Below, one piece after another: positions 6,805 to 45,381 of a stretch of 45,441 nucleotides of DNA. The position numbers and the translations under genes are program-made. Each line of letters starts with the position of its first letter. Positions within the stretch are counted from its first letter, which is position 1. The notes below the pieces were generated by a model. It was not told where the DNA came from, made no database searches, and saw only the letters and a program-made list of their open reading frames with translations. The DNA is from a virus, in the IMG/VR virus record IMGVR_UViG_3300045988_038629, positions 1-45,441 of that record; one strand, given 5' to 3'.

Positions 6805-9800
6805 CTATGCCAATTCAAACGGATTTGTACCGCTTGCATCACGTCTTAACTTTGCTTCGTCAATCATCTCATCAAATATGGTTCGTCTGTTGAGCTGTGC
6901 GGTAAATCTATAGCTTCCGCCAGACTGCTGTCCTCCAGTTTCTTCCCTTACAATCTGCCTTAACAATTCTTCTGGTGCTTCCAGGTTGCGACCATTCTTC
7001 TGATCTCCAAGCACTGCAAGGAACTCTGATCTTGGCGGGATAACGGCACCTTTTGCAAGATATGGAATTGTAGGAACTCTTGGGAAATTAGCTGTAAATC
7101 CAATTGTCCTTGAGCCAAACGGAGTTGGAACCTTCCACGGTCCAAATGTAAATGCTGATTCAATGCCGCCGATTGCACTGTTTACAGTTCCAATAGCGCT
7201 GTTTGCAATTCCGATCACTTTGTTTAATATATCTTTGATAGTATCGCGTATACCTTCAAAAACTCTTACAACTGTATCTCTGGCACTTGTAAATTTATCA
7301 ACGATTGCATCATGAATAGCATTTACTTTTCTGTCAACAAATGTTGTTATACTTTCCCATATAGATGACGTTTTTTCTGATACAGAATCCCAAATTCTTG
7401 TAATTTTAGACTTTATTCCATCAAATACTGTCGAGACTGTAGTTTTTATTGCTTCCCACGTATTAGACAGCCATGTTTTTATAGCATTCCATATTGTAAC
7501 AGTAACTGTTTTTATTGCGTTCCAAGAAAGAGAAATGATACTTTTTATTATTGTTAATGCGGTTTCCACTATTCCATTAATAGCTTCCCAGGCTCCAGAT
7601 ATAATATCTTTTATAAGGTTCCATACACCTCTTGCAATTTCTTTGATTCCGTTCCATGCCAGTTCCCAATCTCCTGTAAAAACTCCTTTCAGAAAATCAA
7701 TAACTCCGCTCAGAACATCTAATACATCTCCAATAATTTTAATAACGGATTTTATTGCTTCTATAACAGTGCTACCAATTACATTTGCCACGTCTGCTAT
7801 TACTGGAATCACATTCGATATAATCCAGCTAATTATTGGGACTAAAATATTTTCCCAAAGTTCTTTTAAGATATCTATTAATTTGCCAAGAAACGTTTGG
7901 ACCTTTACAAACATTTCTCCCAATTCCCCATCCATAAGCTCTTTTATTTTAGAAGCCAAACCTTGCAGAACCGGTAGAATATATGTGTTATATCCATCTA
8001 TTAAAGTTCCAAAAATGGTTGAAAGTCCATTAGCTATTGAATCGAAAAAAGGTTTTAAATGCTCATCGTATAATGCGGTCACCAAATCAGAAAGATTTTG
8101 AATAACTGTCGATAATCCATCGGTTATTGTTTCGATAACCCCAAGTGTTCCTTCGACTGCGCTTTTTAATATATCCTTATTATCAATGAACGGCTGTGCG
8201 ATCATATTCAGCATATCTCTTCCAAGTCTTGCACATAATCCCATAGCAGTCATTGAGATATTCGAGAATATCCCTATGATATTGGCTGTTATCTGCTGCG
8301 CAATTTCTCCACCAAATGCAGAAAATACCTCTGCTAGAGCGGATGAAAAATTTCCTTCAATTTGAGCAACCTCAGATCCAATATCAAACATATCAATTAA
8401 ATATGTTTTTATTCTACTGGTGTTTTGCTTTATAAATTTTTCTATTCCTCCAATAAGATTTTGAGCAATTGTTATTCCAATCCTCGAAAAAGATCCAGAT
8501 ACTCTTCCAATGGAATAGGCAAATGTATCTAAAAAATCACTTGCCGCTCCAATTACTTCTGGATCAGTAAATATATTCTGCAAGGATTTCCCGATAGAGT
8601 TAATATTTTCCTTAATATCATCAAAAATCGGTTTGTAATCGCCTAGTCCATCCCAGAATCCTTTTGATAGCAATTTGGCTAATTTTTTAAACTTCTTTAT
8701 TATGGAATCAAGCGGCTTGGACATTTTTTTAATAGTCGTTTCGCCTTCTGCAAGTTTACCGTAATCCACATTATTTACTGCACCGGATAATCCTCCAGAA
8801 GCTCCACCACCTCCGCCAGATGAAGATGGTGTGGACGATGAGTTGCTACCTGTAGATGTGGCTTTGTGAACTTCATCAAGTGACGAAAGATAGTTTTTTG
8901 TTTCTTTATTTGCTTTTTTCGTAGCTGTTGCATTATCTTTATTGGCATCTGCCAATTTCTCTGCATTATCCGCTGCCTGTCCATACTGATCTGCTGTATC
9001 CGCAATCGCTCCTGTTCCAGCAAGCCCTGCTCCGCTTCCACTTGTCTGACCTGATGATTTCTTGCCAGTAATCAGTTCTGTGAAGCTTTTAAATGCATTT
9101 GCCAGAGTTGCCAGTTTACCGAGTAGAATATTGATTACTTTCAGAACAGGTGTGAAAATATTAATCAATCCCTGCCCAACTGTTGCTTTGAGAGACTGCA
9201 TCTGTAACTGCATTACTCGCACCTGGTTCGCCCAGCTGTCTGAAGTGCGGATGAAATCTCCAGATGCAGCTGATAACTGCTTCTGCACAAAAGCCAATCG
9301 GAGAGCTACTTTCTCCTGTTCGGTCATTTCAGACGTGGTTTTGCCATAGCCATTGGCAAGTGCGTACTGGTCGAGTGCGCTTTGTGTAAGGACCACGCCC
9401 AAATCTTTCAATGTTTCCGTTTCGCCTGTAAACACTGATTTCAGCTTAATATAAGCCAAGTCCTGACTGATGTTATAAAATGATGCCACGTCACCGGTCA
9501 GCTGCGTCAGAGCTGTTGACATGTCATAAGCCTGCTGTTCTGAGAATCCGAACGACTTGGACATTGCGCCGAACGTGCCGACATACCTTTTTGCCATAGT
9601 TTCAGATAGGCCAGCAGAAGTCATGGCATTCTTTGCAAATTCATTGACTTTATCCGACATGGTGGTAAATGTAACATCGACCACGTTCTGTACTTCTGTC
9701 AGATCAGAGCCAAGCTCCACGCACTCTTTTCCGAACTGCACTAACTTGCCAACTGCAAACGCCCCACCAATCAGCAGACCGATTTTTTTTACAGCACTCC

Positions 9801-20679: not shown

Positions 20680-21360
20680 TTACTCAATATTTGTATATCC
20701 CCAATATTTTAATTCCATTTGTTTCCTTGCCATTACTGCTTCTTCTTTGGTTTTAAAAACTCGATCTTCTACGCGTTTTCCGCCTACAGAAATATAAGCT
20801 CTCCATTTTGAATGATTATTGTCAAATAAAACTCCCTTTATACCACTTTTATTGTTCTTGTTTAATGTTGTGGGATTTTTTATGTTTTCTACAATTTCGT
20901 CAAAAGTCCATCCATGATTAAGCCTTTTTCTTATATATTCACGATGAACGCCAAAGAAATGTTCCCATTCACCTACGGTTTTTGTATCTCCTTGGTATTT
21001 AATTTTCCAACTGCTTTGTTTGTTGTTGTTTTGCCATTCTAATGGCACCCACCGACAATTATCAGGAGAATACCCTTTATTAACATCTATCCTGTCTATT
21101 GTAAGTTCTTTTTCGTACCCGCTTGTGTAAGCCCATAATAAAAAAGGTTTGAATTCTTTCCATTCATCACATACTGTTATTCCTCTATCAAAATACGCCA
21201 CTTTGTTATGAGGCTGTGCCTTTTCAGATGTTCTTATTTTCATGCCTGCCCATATTTTGTATAATCGAGTTCCTGCCATTCCGTGAGAATATCTGTAGGA
21301 TTTCCCTGAAAGTGGTTTTTCTTTTTTACCATTTTTAATACAAAATTCTTCAAAAGTCAT
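20680..21360 (-). CDS. HNH homing endonuclease with a C-terminal AP2 DNA-binding domain
   Basis: LTIDRIDVNKGYSPDNCRWVPLEWQNNN (HNH_3) and GIKGVLFDNNHSKWRAYISVGGKRV...EEA (AP2). Start at MTFEEF with an AAAGGAGAA RBS. Confidence 0.8.
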   Translation of the reverse strand: MTFEEFCIKNGKKEKPLSGKSYRYSHGMAGTRLYKIWAGMKIRTSEKAQPHNKVAYFDRGITVCDEWKEFKPFLLWAYTSGYEKELTIDRIDVNKGYSPDNCRWVPLEWQNNNKQSSWKIKYQGDTKTVGEWEHFFGVHREYIRKRLNHGWTFDEIVENIKNPTTLNKNNKSGIKGVLFDNNHSKWRAYISVGGKRVEDRVFKTKEEAVMARKQMELKYWGYTNIE

Positions 21361-21473
21361 TGCGTTTTCTCCTTTCAACTACATTTATCTACATTCAATT
21401 ATATCATTATTTTATTTTAATTGCAAGTAGTTGAAAGTTATGATAAGCTTTAGTATGAAAGGAGTTGAATAAA

Positions 21474-28120: not shown

Positions 28121-28417
28121 TCATTTTCCTCTCGTAATCTCATCAATACAACCATTCCAGCCTGCTTTTATGCTGTTCCAGTGATCTGTTTGAACTACTC
28201 CGGTCATTTTCTCCGGCAATGGCTTCAATGGACACCATTCGGGTCTTGATTTACTTTCAAAGCCGTAGTATTCTTCTGTTAGCAACGTCATGATTTTTCC
28301 TAAATGTTCAGCTAATTCACAATTCCCCTTATAGATATAAATATCGTAATATTCAGTTCCAAATGGACAGTTGTAACAGCTTTTTGGTGTATCAATCACT
28401 AATACTGATTTACTCAT
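28121..28417 (-). CDS. Hypothetical protein
   Basis: ORF tightly packed in the operon. Confidence 0.5.
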   Translation of the reverse strand: MSKSVLVIDTPKSCYNCPFGTEYYDIYIYKGNCELAEHLGKIMTLLTEEYYGFESKSRPEWCPLKPLPEKMTGVVQTDHWNSIKAGWNGCIDEITRGK

Positions 28418-29151
28418 TCCGGCACCTCCATTCCTAAATCAAATAATGTTAATTGTGATTTGAACTCGTTCAACCGTTTTTGAGCTGAATCGTAATAATC
28501 TTCATTAATTTCATACCCGACATATTCAAGCCCACATTCTTCATAGGCAATCAATGAACTTCCGCTCCCCACATGGGTATCAAGAATCTTCATTCCTTTC
28601 TGCAGATATTTCTGACATATCCAACGATATAAATTTACAGGCTTTTGGGTTGGGTGGATTCGCTTTTCGTTCAGCCTTTTGTTGCCCTGCTGTATTGTTC
28701 CTTCAATTATTGATTTTCCTTGAAACATTCCTCTCCACATATAGCGGAAAATGTCAACCCTTCTTGTAAGACTGCAGTAAGCAACTTCTGCGTCTGATTG
28801 ATCTGAACCATCATTGCATTTATCCCAGATTATCAAGCCACCTGCCATTGGGTAATCAAAGTAATTACATCCCCAGATAATCTGATTTTTTGATACTCTG
28901 AATAGCTGTTTAAAATACTCTCGATCTGGCGGTTTATTATCCCAACCATAATTCTTATAGCCGCAATCAGGAACATAAATGGAACTTCCATTTTTCTGCT
29001 TTACATATTTACTGCGATTCTTACCGCCATGTTCTTTGATTCCGTATGGTGGGTCTACAACTGCCACATCGAAGTAATTATCTGGAAAGTCCGGGAGAAA
29101 ATTCATGCAGTCACCGCAAATAAATTCTCTTTGCATCAGTGTTCCTCTCAT
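28414..29151 (-). CDS. Orphan DNA methyltransferase (N6-adenine/N4-cytosine, DPPY type)
   Basis: VVDPPYG motif, followed by HPTQKPVNLY and DTHVGSGSS (AdoMet site). No cognate endonuclease is present. Confidence 0.85.
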   Translation of the reverse strand: MRGTLMQREFICGDCMNFLPDFPDNYFDVAVVDPPYGIKEHGGKNRSKYVKQKNGSSIYVPDCGYKNYGWDNKPPDREYFKQLFRVSKNQIIWGCNYFDYPMAGGLIIWDKCNDGSDQSDAEVAYCSLTRRVDIFRYMWRGMFQGKSIIEGTIQQGNKRLNEKRIHPTQKPVNLYRWICQKYLQKGMKILDTHVGSGSSLIAYEECGLEYVGYEINEDYYDSAQKRLNEFKSQLTLFDLGMEVPE

Positions 29152-30505: not shown

Positions 30506-31396
30506 TTAATACTCAATAAAATCAGATAATTCCATCTGACCAACTATATTATTGTCTTGCATCCACCATAGATATACTTCTTCGCCACAACTCCACTTCA
30601 CATCTTTTCCGCGCCGCTTGCGTTCCTCGATCATTCTGTCAAAAGCACGTATATAGGCTTGCTTGTACTTTGGAAAATCGTACATTTCCTTTTCCCTCTG
30701 TTTCTTTGATGCAAGTGGACAACCTAGACAGCCTAACCTGTTATATCCGCATTGATACAGTTCGCATACTTGAATGTTTTTCTCGCCAATGAACTGCCAG
30801 ATATTCTGATCTGTCCAGTCAATTATTGGATTGACTACTGTTTTAGATTTCATCTGGCAATTTTCAAACAACCTTCGAGTATCACAATTATCGGTGATAA
30901 GCATTTTTTCGTCAGAAACGCCAATACTTTTACTTGCTGTCTGCCCTAATACTTCAAATGGGCTTCTATTACTTCTCTTGCTACTTTCAGACCATCTAAC
31001 GCCTGTTGCAATCATTCTGTTAGGATTCCCACCTTCTTTCAATTCTGAACAGCAATACCGAACAATTCTGGTAGGTGGCATTAGTTTTCTTGGAATAAGA
31101 TTCCACATTGTAAGACGGTTTCCGTTTTCCTGCACATGATAATCAATCTCGCATTTGATGCCTTTGTCCGTCAATTCAGAAAACGTATTCTTGATATGCC
31201 TTACTGTCTGCGGTGCATCAACAGTGGTATGTGAGTTATGTACTTCAAACGGGATTCCAGACATTCTGAATAGTTCAAGAAGCACATCTGAATCCTTTCC
31301 GCCGGAATACTCACATACAAGTGGTTTGTTATAATGTTTCAACGAGAGATCAGACGCAAGCTGGATTCTTTCAATTGCTTTTTGTTCTAAATCCAT
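30506..31396 (-). CDS. PAPS reductase/adenine-nucleotide alpha-hydrolase family protein
   Basis: SGGKDS PP-loop. Conserved Cys pairs in the C-terminal half. Confidence 0.75.
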   Translation of the reverse strand: MDLEQKAIERIQLASDLSLKHYNKPLVCEYSGGKDSDVLLELFRMSGIPFEVHNSHTTVDAPQTVRHIKNTFSELTDKGIKCEIDYHVQENGNRLTMWNLIPRKLMPPTRIVRYCCSELKEGGNPNRMIATGVRWSESSKRSNRSPFEVLGQTASKSIGVSDEKMLITDNCDTRRLFENCQMKSKTVVNPIIDWTDQNIWQFIGEKNIQVCELYQCGYNRLGCLGCPLASKKQREKEMYDFPKYKQAYIRAFDRMIEERKRRGKDVKWSCGEEVYLWWMQDNNIVGQMELSDFIEY

Positions 31397-38952: not shown

Positions 38953-39108
38953 TTAAAGCAGTGCTAAATACGTAAACAGTGCAAATACAATACCTGCCAG
39001 AACTTGCTGCAAGTTCTTCTCCCACATCCACACCGGAAGAAAAGTAAGCAGAATCCCAATAATCGCACTGACTACGATATCCTTTCTATTTTGTCTAGGT
39101 GATTTCAT
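38953..39108 (-). CDS. 51-aa two-TM membrane peptide
   Basis: MKSPRQNRKDIVVSAIIGILLTFLPVWMWEKNLQQVLAGIVFALFTYLALL. GGAGGGA RBS. Confidence 0.45.
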   Translation of the reverse strand: MKSPRQNRKDIVVSAIIGILLTFLPVWMWEKNLQQVLAGIVFALFTYLALL

Positions 39109-39134: not shown

Positions 39135-39320
39135 TTACAGACTGTAAGCAATATACCAGAAGATATTAGTAATGATTAACAGCGCGGCAGTCAAAAGCCA
39201 TGCACTGAACCACTTCTTAGTCTCTCTTTTTGCTTTTTTCACGATTTCGGTAGCTAGCATTGTTTCCAAATCGTTCCATGTAATCTTTTCATTGTTTGTT
39301 TCATTTTTTTTATTTTCCAT
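39135..39320 (-). CDS. 61-aa C-terminally anchored membrane protein
   Basis: WFSAWLLTAALLIITNIFWYIAY. Confidence 0.5.
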   Translation of the reverse strand: MENKKNETNNEKITWNDLETMLATEIVKKAKRETKKWFSAWLLTAALLIITNIFWYIAYSL

Positions 39321-39646: not shown

Positions 39647-40342
39647 CTATTTTGCTTCTTCTGCAAAATGTTTCTCCATGAGATCGGCAATCATCAAGTA
39701 TTCTTCGGCGATTTTGCCTTTTCTGGTATTTTTAACCTGTTCACGGAACTCTGGAATTGTTCCATAGAAGCAGCCGCAAGATACTTTGACTTGTTTGTCT
39801 TTGCATCTGAAGAATGTAGTTGTGCGGAATTGAGTACCGAATCCACGAATAGTTGTGTAATCTGCATTGCCGGACACCCATGCATCGCCGGACACCTCTG
39901 CATTGCCGGACACCATTGCATTGCCGGACACCCATGCATTGCCGGACACCCATGCATCGCCGGACACCTCTGCATTGCCGAACACTATTGCATTGCCGGA
40001 CACCTCTGCATTGCCGGACACCTCTGCATTGCCGGACACCATTGCATTGCCGGACACCATTGCATTGCCGGACACCCTTGCATTGCCGGACACCCATGCA
40101 TTGCCGGACACTATTGCATTGCCGGACACCTCTGCATTGCCGGACACCCTTGCATTGCCGGACACCTCTGCATTGCCGGACACCCATGCATCGCCGGACT
40201 GATTTACATTTTCTTCTTTTTCTACCCATCCGCCAGTTTCTCCGGCTTCTACGTTTCCAAACGAAATGAGTGCTTTGATTCGGAAAAGTTTCTTTCCGAA
40301 AATGTTAATTTTGGTTTCTGATGTTAATTCAAATTTCTTCAT
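39647..40342 (-). CDS. Hexapeptide-repeat (VSGNAx)18 beta-solenoid protein with conserved N- and C-terminal domains
   Basis: AAGGAGGAAAAC RBS. N-terminal FRIKALISFGNVEAGETGGWVEKEENV. C-terminal CGCFYGTIPEFREQV. Confidence 0.8.
   Translation of the reverse strand: MKKFELTSETKINIFGKKLFRIKALISFGNVEAGETGGWVEKEENVNQSGDAWVSGNAEVSGNARVSGNAEVSGNAIVSGNAWVSGNARVSGNAMVSGNAMVSGNAEVSGNAEVSGNAIVFGNAEVSGDAWVSGNAWVSGNAMVSGNAEVSGDAWVSGNADYTTIRGFGTQFRTTTFFRCKDKQVKVSCGCFYGTIPEFREQVKNTRKGKIAEEYLMIADLMEKHFAEEAK
39863..40200. repeat. 18-bp tandem repeat, 18.7 copies (TGCATTGCCGGACAC + 3 variable nt)
   Basis: Units listed by hand. Variable triplet is CCA, CTC, CAT, TAT or CCT. Confidence 0.95.
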
Positions 40343-40408
40343 GTTTTCCTCCTTAATTACTGTGAAGTTACAGCTTCTTTCTTATCTGATTCTTGCTCCA
40401 GATTATTC

Positions 40409-43806: not shown

Positions 43807-45381
43807 ATGAATGAATCAGTATGCATCTATCTAAGGAAATCCAGAGCTGATCGGGAAGCTGAAGCGCATGGAGAGGGTGAAACCCTCGCCAGACATGAAC
43901 GGATCCTGTTAGATCTCGCAAAGAAAAAAGAGTACATCGTGGGCGCTATTTACCGCGAAGTGGTATCGGGAGAAACTATCGCCGACCGTCCTGTTATGCA
44001 GCAGCTTCTCCACGAAGTAGAATCCGGTATGTGGGATGGAGTTCTGGTTGTGGAAGTAGAACGTCTCGCCAGAGGTGATACTATAGACCAAGGCGTTGTG
44101 TCCAGGGCTTTCCAATATTCCGATACGAAGATTATTACCCCAACAAAAATATATGACCCAAACAACGAATTTGATGAAGAGTATTTTGAGTTTGGGCTAT
44201 TCATGAGCCGCCGAGAATACAAAACCGTCAAGCGCCGTCTGAATGCCGGAAGGATCTCATCAATAAAAGAAGGGAAATACTGTGGTAACAAACCACCTTA
44301 CGGATACGAAAGAGTTAAGCTCGAAAAAGAAAAAGGCTATACTCTCCGACCTGTTCCGGCTCAGGCTGAGATTGTAAAAATGATCTACACCTGGTATGCC
44401 GGTGATGGCTGCGAACAAATTGGAGTCGCGAAGATTGCACGGAAATTAAATGAAATGGGAATAGAATCTGCACTGGGCGGCGACTGGACTCCTGCCAGTA
44501 TACAGGGAATTCTGACAAATCCGGTATACATCGGGAAAATCCGATGGAATGGGAGAAAAACAGTGAAGACTATACAGAATGGTCAAGTAATTAAGACACG
44601 CCCACGATCAAAAGATACTCTTATTTGTGATGGATTGCATCCGGCTATTATATCGGAGGACCTGTTTAACTCCGTACAGGAAATACGAAAAAAGAACCCA
44701 CCTCGACCAGTTAGTATAGCAAACTCGATTCGTAATCCACTTGCCGGAATTGTCTATTGCAGCAAATGCGGTCGCGCCATGGTTCGCCGTCCTTATCAAA
44801 AGCGCGGACAGGAAGATACCCTCATGTGTCCATATACGTCTTGCCCCACAGTAAGTAGCAAGTTGCCTCTGGTTGAAAAAGCTGTGATTGATGGAATTAG
44901 GGAGATTGTGGAGGAATATAAGTTAAACAATGATATTAATATATCTTCAAAGGATATTGATTGCGGAATAACTTCTAAGCAGAATCTCATACACGAAAAA
45001 GAAAACGAGCTGAAAAACTTAAACTCTCAGAAGGCGAAACAATATGATCTGCTTGAACAGGGTATCTACACCACAGAGGTTTTTCTTGAACGTGCTAAAA
45101 CAATATCCGCATCTATCCAGTCATGCTCCGATACTATAGAAAAATTAAAAGAAGAAATCAAACATGGCGAGAACATTATAAAACAACGGTCGGATTTTAT
45201 CCCGCGTTGCGAAGAGTTGCTTGATAATTATTGGAGCCTTGACACGGAATCGAAGAATAAAATGCTTAAGAGTTTGATTGAAAAGGTTGTCTACTCAAAA
45301 GATACAAAAAACGCTTATGGGAAAGGCAACGAGATTGGTTTTCAGCTAGACATTTTCCCAAAAATTCAAAAGAATAATTAA
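43807..45381 (+). CDS. int: Large serine recombinase (integrase)
   Basis: N-terminal resolvase domain with YLRKSRAD (catalytic Ser), a recombinase domain, the zinc ribbon CSKCG...CPYTSC, and a C-terminal coiled coil. Confidence 0.9.
   Translation: MNESVCIYLRKSRADREAEAHGEGETLARHERILLDLAKKKEYIVGAIYREVVSGETIADRPVMQQLLHEVESGMWDGVLVVEVERLARGDTIDQGVVSRAFQYSDTKIITPTKIYDPNNEFDEEYFEFGLFMSRREYKTVKRRLNAGRISSIKEGKYCGNKPPYGYERVKLEKEKGYTLRPVPAQAEIVKMIYTWYAGDGCEQIGVAKIARKLNEMGIESALGGDWTPASIQGILTNPVYIGKIRWNGRKTVKTIQNGQVIKTRPRSKDTLICDGLHPAIISEDLFNSVQEIRKKNPPRPVSIANSIRNPLAGIVYCSKCGRAMVRRPYQKRGQEDTLMCPYTSCPTVSSKLPLVEKAVIDGIREIVEEYKLNNDINISSKDIDCGITSKQNLIHEKENELKNLNSQKAKQYDLLEQGIYTTEVFLERAKTISASIQSCSDTIEKLKEEIKHGENIIKQRSDFIPRCEELLDNYWSLDTESKNKMLKSLIEKVVYSKDTKNAYGKGNEIGFQLDIFPKIQKNN

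Follow-up and report, generated by a model that had tools for sequence, protein, structure and literature searches.

The minus-strand gene at 39647–40342 of IMG/VR virus record IMGVR_UViG_3300045988_038629 (45,441 nucleotides; the whole stretch was analysed and is referred to below as the window) encodes a protein composed of a YdcK-like N-terminal cap, an array of V-S-G-N-A-x hexapeptides and a small alpha/beta domain, and the window comes from a temperate, siphovirus-like gut phage. The explanation that best accounts for the data overall, and that we consider fairly probable, is that the product is a three-part early protein whose array evolves by turnover of whole units, whose residue mixtures are selected and which works as a non-enzymatic binding scaffold or decoy. 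An uncharacterised family (PF18836, PHROG 7964) and variable tandem repeats in coding sequences were already known; what is of interest is the evolutionary pattern at the level of the family.

A single strong tandem array was detected in the window by Tandem Repeats Finder (TRF; 39863–40199, period 18, 18.7 copies, score 478), in agreement with the 18.7 copies of an 18-bp unit described in an earlier note made from the sequence alone. On the coding (minus) strand, the array runs from 40201 down to 39860 (342 bp): a lead unit, QSGDAW, is followed by 18 units of the form GTG TCC GGC AAT GCA NNN, i.e. V-S-G-N-A-x, and the final unit, VSGNAD, opens into the C-terminal domain. The residues at x, in the order W,E,R,E,I,W,R,M,M,E,E,I,E,W,W,M,E,W, are those that the earlier note had listed, apart from the terminal D unit, which it omitted. 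Fifteen of the 18 bases of the unit are near-invariant, and in the window array a single codon, that of x, varies. The 15-base backbone of the 18 full units shows three differences, none of them synonymous: Asn>Asp twice and Ser>Phe once. With the Asp of the lead unit, the A>G changes of the coding strand (T>C when read on the plus strand) number three, and Ser>Phe is a C>T change (G>A on the plus strand); these are the four differences reported earlier, one of the T>C changes being in the lead unit. Likewise, the unit parse gave no synonymous difference between units, as had been noticed. The codon x is limited to five types, one per amino acid (six types with the terminal GAT), which points to a shuffling of unit types rather than to hypermutation. 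A scan for the 15-mer of the unit returned 19 occurrences with at most one mismatch, in the array, and 21 in the whole window with at most three mismatches (1.0 expected by chance); at this latter threshold, no credible copy of the unit was seen in the window outside the array. Finally, five of the six reading frames are open across the array, and not all six as previously stated: one minus-strand frame is interrupted by two TAG stops because two Ile units read ATA-G.

Variation concentrated in a few nucleotides of each unit, at few codon positions of a phage protein, is also encountered with diversity-generating retroelements (DGRs), of which Mtd of Bordetella phage BPP-1 is a phage example, and targeted hypermutation of the variable codon by such a system could be invoked. 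By contrast with known DGRs, however, no reverse transcriptase was found among the window open reading frames (ORFs) scanned, no second copy of the unit is available in the window to act as a template repeat, and the variation shows no adenine specificity: silent adenines are invariant (GCA in the window, GTA in Ruminococcus phage phiRM10), though adenine-specific mutagenesis would affect them. The use of only five codon types in 18 units, with one codon per amino acid, also argues against this mechanism. We therefore rejected the array as a DGR target and regard targeted hypermutation as extremely improbable.

To compare the array with those of related phages, as the earlier note had proposed, two samples of homologous genes were assembled. 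The first was collected with an exact two-unit DNA pattern, which is biased toward the canonical unit; it comprised 74 IMG/VR loci, from which 38 complete genes with 2–28 units were obtained if the window gene and two GenBank genes are included. The second, which removes this bias, was collected with protein patterns from the non-repeat N-terminus (529 confirmed loci, 80 kept), and 74 of the 78 genes recovered could be parsed, giving 9–34 hexapeptides including the lead unit. Once pooled and de-duplicated, the two samples contain 92 distinct arrays of 2–33 full units (lead unit not counted). The suspicion that the gene is prone to changes in copy number was supported by relatives with nearly or fully identical flanks. 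In two GenBank gut-virome contigs, approximately 83–92% identical to the region, the gene has 5 and 2 units, and the gene at locus L045 is identical to the window gene over 333 flank nucleotides but has 9 units versus 18. The first units of L045, W-E-R-E-M-W, are in common with the window array, with M where the window has Ile, which indicates that the ATA codon of the window is a point mutant of the Met codon ATG that was duplicated later. More generally, 70 gene pairs have identical non-repeat flanks and different arrays, and 63 of these pairs differ in unit number (for instance 3 versus 17, 8 versus 22 or 12 versus 32). Duplications of multi-unit blocks are visible as well, e.g. at locus L024.

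Alternatively, the window array, or its 18-unit length, might have been mis-assembled from a shorter or heterogeneous repeat. Its 342 bp exceed typical short reads, and several genome contigs end inside a homologous array. Against this, the longest exact repeat within the array region is 46 bp and all of its 55-mers are unique, so that the order of the units can be resolved at common assembler k values; arrays that single reads can span (2–8 units) differ in number too; and the isolated, fully sequenced phages Sfi19, phiRM10 and AP1 carry 17–24 homogeneous units. An assembly artefact appears improbable to us, though less clearly so for the exact number of 18 units.

The silent sites of the array behave very differently from those of its flanks. 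Among 37 close genes, third codon positions have a nucleotide diversity of 0.15 in the N-terminal flank and 0.31 in the C-terminal flank, but of only 0.004–0.047 in the pooled units, where unit nucleotides 5, 8, 10, 16 and 17, all at first or second codon positions, reach 0.21–0.62. The relatives use S/F/Y, and rarely C, at position 2 of the hexapeptide, G/D at position 3, N/D at position 4 and E/R/W/K/M at position 6, and each residue at a variable site is nearly always encoded by a single codon. Hence, the earlier description of one hypervariable codon holds for the window array alone: in the relatives, positions 2, 3 and 4 vary too, and diversification concerns four polymorphic positions across the family rather than one surface position. 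Nor is the variation open-ended, as hypervariability would imply, since it consists of a small recurrent alphabet shuffled by duplication and deletion of units.

A similar situation was found in four distant phage lineages, in each of which the array is nearly uniform on its own set of synonymous codons. V, position 2, G, position 4 and A are encoded respectively by GTC, TAT/TGT, GGT, AAC/GAC and GCA (13 of 17; GCT in 4) in Sfi19 orf229, by GTA, TCC/TAC, GGT, GAC/AAC and GCT in phiRM10 gp34, by GTG, TCT/TTT, GGT, GAG/AAG and GCT in Vibrio phage 1.034.O, and by GTC, TAC, GGC, GAT/AAT and GCG in Acidovorax phage AP1, compared to GTG, TCC, GGC, AAT and GCA in the window gene. It follows that the arrays were homogenised independently in each lineage and that the DNA motif itself is not conserved. 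All the distant arrays nevertheless retain S/Y/F/C-type variation at position 2 and, at position 6, a mixture of R/W/E/Q/K (NGG/NAG codons); N/D is found at position 4 in three of them, as in the window gene, the Vibrio phage having E/K instead. The survival of these replacement polymorphisms through homogenisation points to selection for mixed residues. Copy number, third-position diversity and lineage-specific codon sets together identify the array as a coding variable-number tandem repeat under concerted evolution. Of the two explanations put forward in the earlier note, concerted evolution is thus supported, whereas very recent expansion is insufficient on its own, given that the arrays of distant lineages are each homogenised on a different codon set. 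The pattern indicates independent concerted evolution combined with selection for mixed residues, and not hypermutation of a single codon.

The divergence of the DNA unit between lineages also bears on the possibility that the 18-bp units act as DNA, for instance as replication-origin iterons or operators, with coding as a secondary function. The replication module lies shortly downstream of the array, the lambda ori iterons lie inside gene O, and an 18-bp unit is similar in size to iterons. But the hexapeptide is conserved where the DNA unit is not, copy number spans 2–33, homologs with degenerate DNA retain the protein repeat (Bacillus phage Bp8p-C gp209 has ordinary degenerate repeats with mixed codons), and the family occurs in T7-like, N4-like and SPO1-like phages, which have unrelated replication systems. 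We consider a primary role as DNA to be highly improbable.

At the protein level, the repeat belongs to the YdcK beta-solenoid family: Pfam PF18836 (YdcK beta solenoid repeat) matches seven stretches with 65.4 bits against a cut-off of 30 (E 1.6e-18). PHROG 7964, a family that includes Sfi19 orf229 (sequenced in 1999), is matched end to end (E=2.6e-76, residues 1–229 on positions 25–267 of a 269-position profile). The sequences of the YdcK crystal structures 2f9c and 2pig match at E=4e-19, the 2f9c alignment beginning at query residue 20, and those of the left-handed beta-helix enzymes LpxD and LpxA match at 5e-6 to 2e-4. When the N-terminal 53 residues were scanned alone, NCBIfam YdcK_fam still matched residues 18–53 (6.2e-08), and the cap has many invariant columns across 47 homologs. 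The protein falls well short of the NCBIfam YdcK equivalog NF040481 (86.7 bits against 350; residues 18–126 on positions 25–132 of a 326-position profile). The hexapeptide motif [LIV]-[GAED]-X2-[STAV]-X is present in register in 18/18 units, V always occupying position 1 and A position 5. A left-handed beta-helix is the simplest reading of the array, in keeping with the beta-helix proposed in the earlier note. This reading rests on sequence evidence because the structure prediction that the note had called for was only partly successful: the full-length AlphaFold2 model is of low confidence (predicted local distance difference test, pLDDT, 61), although strands recur every six residues, while the C-terminal domain could be modelled well. 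In the standard geometry of such a helix, V points inward, with i-1 and i+1 on either side of it, and i+2 and i+3 are located at the corner; the variable positions should accordingly be solvent-exposed. The sequence of the 231-residue protein shows neither a signal peptide nor a membrane segment.

Matches to other hexapeptide proteins raise the question of whether the product is a bactofilin-like filament former or a hexapeptide acyltransferase. The bactofilin family PF04519 scores just above its cut-off (29.3 versus 27.9 bits), the LpxA, LpxD and GlmU families give weak matches, and the names given to homologs in the source databases include 'polymer-forming cytoskeletal protein' and 'putative acyltransferase'. 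The PF04519 match overlaps the stronger PF18836 match, however, and the solved bactofilin structure 6ria matches only at E=0.59. As to acyltransferases and other enzymes, every family score is far below its cut-off. The phage protein shares with LpxA, LpxD, GlmU and DapD the hexapeptide motif, with V at i and A at i+4, but it lacks their catalytic loops and conserved catalytic residues, and its length is variable. Perfect repeats devoid of insert loops, the tolerance of 2–33 units and a random unit order argue against an enzyme. Both identities are, in our view, very unlikely.

The C-terminal domain appears to be the other constant part of the protein; the presence of conserved non-repeat N- and C-terminal parts, noted previously, was borne out in the homologs. 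The AlphaFold2 model of the C-terminal 78 residues (pLDDT 84, predicted template modelling score 0.73) contains four strands and two helices. A PDB fold search with this model gave no match better than E=0.12, and Pfam and NCBIfam scans of the isolated domain gave none. There were clear matches among the viral models of BFVD, where the same fold terminates hexapeptide- and pentapeptide-repeat proteins. A profile of the domain collects 1849 clusters at 50% identity, in which it is mostly found at the C-terminus of proteins of 80–300 residues. Some homologs depart from this layout: in P0333 (522 residues), the whole cap–solenoid–domain module is duplicated in tandem, P0288 (413 residues) has approximately 290 extra residues beyond the C-terminal domain, and P0260 (161 residues) has a non-solenoid N-terminus. 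A zinc site in the domain was considered and rejected: only the cysteines of the CGCF motif are invariant, the other Cys and His varying, so that a four-ligand site within one chain is unsupported.

How the array evolves and what the protein does may then be pictured as follows. Because the 18-bp units are near-identical in DNA, whole units or blocks of units would be gained and lost, probably by replication slippage or by unequal or single-strand-annealing recombination. This turnover would keep silent sites alike (concerted evolution) and make length polymorphic among otherwise near-identical phages. Selection appears to hold residue mixtures (R/W/E/K/M/Q at x, S/F/Y/C at position 2, G/D at position 3 and N/D at position 4), while V and A, at the core, stay fixed. 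The protein most likely works early in infection, as a scaffold or decoy that binds a component of the host or of a defence system, which is the least certain step. The C-terminal domain would be a constant handle and the repeat array the evolvable part, the length and surface mosaic of which could be tuned or diversified. As for the composition of that surface, the window array has a net charge of -8.2, the family mean is -0.35 per unit, and 96% of the arrays are net negative; Trp is unusually frequent at x (419 of 1913 interior units). Together with the early position, the random order of the units and the range of lengths tolerated, these features speak for a scaffold or decoy with a constant C-terminal part rather than for an enzyme.

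Several points weigh against this explanation. All the arrays compared were assembled from short-read metagenomes, in which some contigs stop within the array; part of the copy numbers may hence be incorrect, and individual metagenome unit counts need caution. The first sample is biased by its exact two-unit pattern, though the second gives the same picture. The beta-helix and the exposure of the variable positions are deduced from homology and textbook geometry, and with a full-length model at pLDDT 61 the PDB fold search is meaningless, returning only noise and no significant match. In addition, no annotation assigns a function to the protein: the PADLOC defence and counter-defence models gave no match at E<=0.01 for the repeat gene and four neighbours, Pfam and NCBIfam are silent on the C-terminal domain, and literature searches on the phage family turned up no description of a function, of length polymorphism, of independent concerted evolution or of shared residue polymorphisms (the SVep1 paper does not mention this gene). 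Finally, the order of the units carries no signal. In the 92 arrays it is indistinguishable from a shuffled order at lags 1–9, with no period-3 signal; period-3 stacking and salt-bridge ladders along the helix were looked for and not found, and there is no charge pairing between stacked positions. Arrays as short as two units exist, and this, together with the lack of order, fits relaxed constraint as well as adaptive tuning. (Associations between variable positions were also considered and set aside as uninformative, since they mainly reflect sub-lineage structure.)

These last observations are those expected if the repeat is neutrally unstable, i.e. if a beta-helix tolerates any length, slippage makes the array drift and the residue mixture merely comprises the substitutions that the fold permits. 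Besides the shuffled-like order, the absence of charge pairing at lag 3 and the existence of arrays of 2–5 units, unit number modulo 3 is uniform across the 92 arrays (33/30/29), showing that whole turns of a three-sided helix are not required. Nevertheless, the silent sites are 10–100 times less diverse than the five replacement sites, whereas tolerance predicts that silent diversity should equal or exceed replacement diversity. Furthermore, similar small alphabets recur in lineages that were homogenised independently on different codons, which is hard to explain without selection for heterogeneity. Neutral instability is possible but, we believe, rather unlikely; replacement diversity exceeds silent diversity, and it does so repeatedly in separate lineages, which leads us to favour selection, that is, variation in length and surface that is adaptive, as in an arms race, over variation that is merely tolerated.

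A more specific proposal, which we put forward only tentatively and think unlikely to be right in full, is that the gene is a phage 'contingency locus': an early counter-defence or host-takeover protein, whose recombination-prone array gives length and surface variants and whose C-terminal domain is a conserved effector or anchor. The array might then serve as decoy, sponge or DNA mimic, and the annealing protein of the phage might assist its rearrangements. If this were true, such variants would enable the phage to evade recognition or to keep up with variable host targets. Whatever the case, the array family offers a clean case for concerted evolution of a folded repeat, and a natural series of rods of 2–33 hexapeptides with defined selected positions makes it a tractable candidate for a phage–host arms-race protein. 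The family is large, with 7853 homologs of the 231-residue protein at E<=1e-10 in addition to the C-terminal-domain clusters, and many of its members bear misleading names.

Known systems resemble the phage protein only in part. The cap and first solenoid turns of YdcK from E. coli and Salmonella (2F9C, 2PIG; PF18836; NF040481) are homologous to those of the phage protein, but the repeats of the chromosomal YdcK in the PDB alignment are irregular and degenerate, and the phage C-terminal domain has no match to the C-terminal part of YdcK. To our knowledge, YdcK itself has no known function. The proteins of PHROG 7964/5070/20532 (e.g. Sfi19 orf229 and phiRM10 gp34) have the three-part architecture, the early position and DNA-homogenised arrays; they are only 53–58% identical to the window protein, with other codon sets and x alphabets, and are annotated as hypothetical only. 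Pentapeptide-repeat proteins such as Qnr and MfpA, which act as DNA mimics, are rod-like solenoids too, the phage arrays are mostly acidic, and phage pentapeptide-repeat proteins in BFVD end in a fold like the C-terminal domain (template modelling score 0.71–0.72, E ~3e-3). By contrast, repeat length and helix geometry differ, and the charge density of the phage arrays is modest at approximately -0.35 per hexapeptide. Lastly, the repeat tract of E. coli tolA (PMC3477136) is made of coding repeats that stay in frame and vary in number among close relatives, which alters a structural spacer. Unlike the tolA tract, the phage repeat lies in an early gene and encodes a putative folded solenoid instead of a linker, and its residue mixtures are kept across independently homogenised lineages.

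The features of the gene are collected in Table 1. The diversity of the flanks is highest at the third codon position of the frame of this gene, which supports its strand and frame; it is a real protein-coding gene that heads an early recombination and replication operon. It is among the first genes of this operon, between the regulatory region and the recombination and replication genes, and the assignments of its neighbours uphold the early location proposed in the earlier note. Downstream, on the same minus strand, are genes for a Sak4-like annealing protein (approximately 1.6 kb from the repeat gene, in the same operon), an SSB-like protein, an ERCC4 nuclease and a primase/helicase, and further minus-strand ORFs encode a Dda-like helicase and a DNA methyltransferase. 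The window also encodes a terminase, a portal protein, head proteins, a tape measure, tail proteins and an endolysin. Since every large ORF has an ordinary phage assignment, the window is an essentially complete temperate siphovirus-like genome. Among cellular sequences, the nearest matches fall on contigs attributed to gut Clostridia, first Ruminococcus bromii (69%) and next Blautia and Lachnospiraceae. A promoter and terminator scan gave nothing over shuffled expectation.

Table 1. The repeat gene, its parts and associated features in the window
Feature	Coordinates	Strand	Basis or remark
Whole gene, 231-aa YdcK-like beta-solenoid protein	39647–40342	-	ORF; ATG 40340–40342, stop 39647–39649
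Strong ribosome-binding site AAGGAGG, 5 nt upstream of the ATG	40348–40354	-	Read from sequence; plus strand catgttttcctcctt
N-terminal cap, residues 1–47 (MKKFELT...GGWVEKEENVN)	40202–40342	-	Homologous to YdcK N-terminus
Tandem array, residues 48–161; length-variable hexapeptide repeats (putative beta-helix)	39860–40201	-	TRF, unit-by-unit parse and 15-mer scan
C-terminal domain, residues 162–231, invariant CGCF motif	39650–39859	-	AlphaFold2 model, PHROG 20532
Serine integrase	43807–45381	+	ORF assignment

The family is found in temperate siphoviruses and in T7-like, N4-like and SPO1-like phages, and lies in the early region in most of the lineages examined. The Sfi19 and phiRM10 homologs occupy positions equivalent to that of the window gene. 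The homolog of Aeromonas phage Aer_P220 is located upstream of the RNA polymerase of that phage, that of Edwardsiella phage ETP-1 is among small hypothetical genes upstream of the primase, and that of the N4-like Acidovorax phage AP1 is approximately 2 kb from the virion RNA polymerase gene, again among small hypothetical genes. The case of the SPO1-like Bacillus phage Bp8p-C is less clear: the homolog is at the genome end, which is an early region by analogy only. Symbiopectobacterium genomes hold several copies of the family, presumably through multiple prophages (five in strain RP and three in S. purcellii MEX; loci L167, L169, L182, L194, L206, L210, L211 and L214). A link to the 'hypervariable prophage genes' of Liberibacter was considered and not retained, as the match in phage SC1 is a fragmented homolog (gp22–gp24) that could not be tied to the hyv genes. 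This fragmented homolog adjoins an antirepressor and a primase.

In practical terms, the array breaks assemblies, prompts gene calls that are overlapping or on the wrong strand and has been annotated as CRISPR spacers. Contigs from metagenome-assembled genomes end inside the homologous array, which shows that the repeat breaks short-read assemblies; at loci L174, L177, L181, L203 and L204, the match stops near query residue 160. In AP1, the deposited coding sequence (CDS) is on the opposite strand over the homologous gene (L220 1974–2534), and in Sfi19 an overlapping ORF in an alternative frame, orf129 (L217 3089–3478), is annotated over it; both calls arise because the array is open in several frames. 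In Vibrio phage 1.034.O (MG592418.1 39761–40081, L216 1655–1975), the array inside CDS NVP1034O_57 is labelled as a 'CRISPR spacer' noncoding RNA, and such GenBank features in several Nahant Vibrio phages are almost certainly false calls from the coding repeat. Truncated gene calls from an internal GTG or ATG are common in the protein database (P0121, P0124, P0127). Homologs are also named glycerol kinase, L-fucokinase, MFS-type transporter, acyl-carrier-protein, bactofilin CcmA and carbonic anhydrase/acetyltransferase; these unrelated names look like spurious transfers from low-complexity repeat matches.

Some minor observations were made on the surroundings of the gene. The two ORFs directly downstream, 38953–39108 and 39135–39320 (both on the minus strand), resemble membrane proteins; the small downstream ORFs encode 51 residues with two hydrophobic stretches and 61 residues with one C-terminal hydrophobic stretch. 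In phiRM10, a small transmembrane protein, gp33, adjoins the solenoid homolog, and in Bp8p-C gp209 a hydrophobic, probably multi-pass transmembrane, N-terminal extension is fused to the solenoid. Elsewhere in the window, the accessory genes of the replication region include, among 28414–29151 and 30506–31396 (minus strand), those for a DNA methyltransferase and a PAPS-reductase-like protein, and an HNH endonuclease gene (20680–21378, minus strand) lies inside the head and packaging cluster, with the portal and minor head protein genes upstream of it. TRF also reported two low-scoring repeats, one of 21 bp x 2.2 at 7677–7724, inside the tape-measure gene, and one of 17 bp x 1.9 at 38954–38988, at the 3' end of the first of the two small downstream ORFs.

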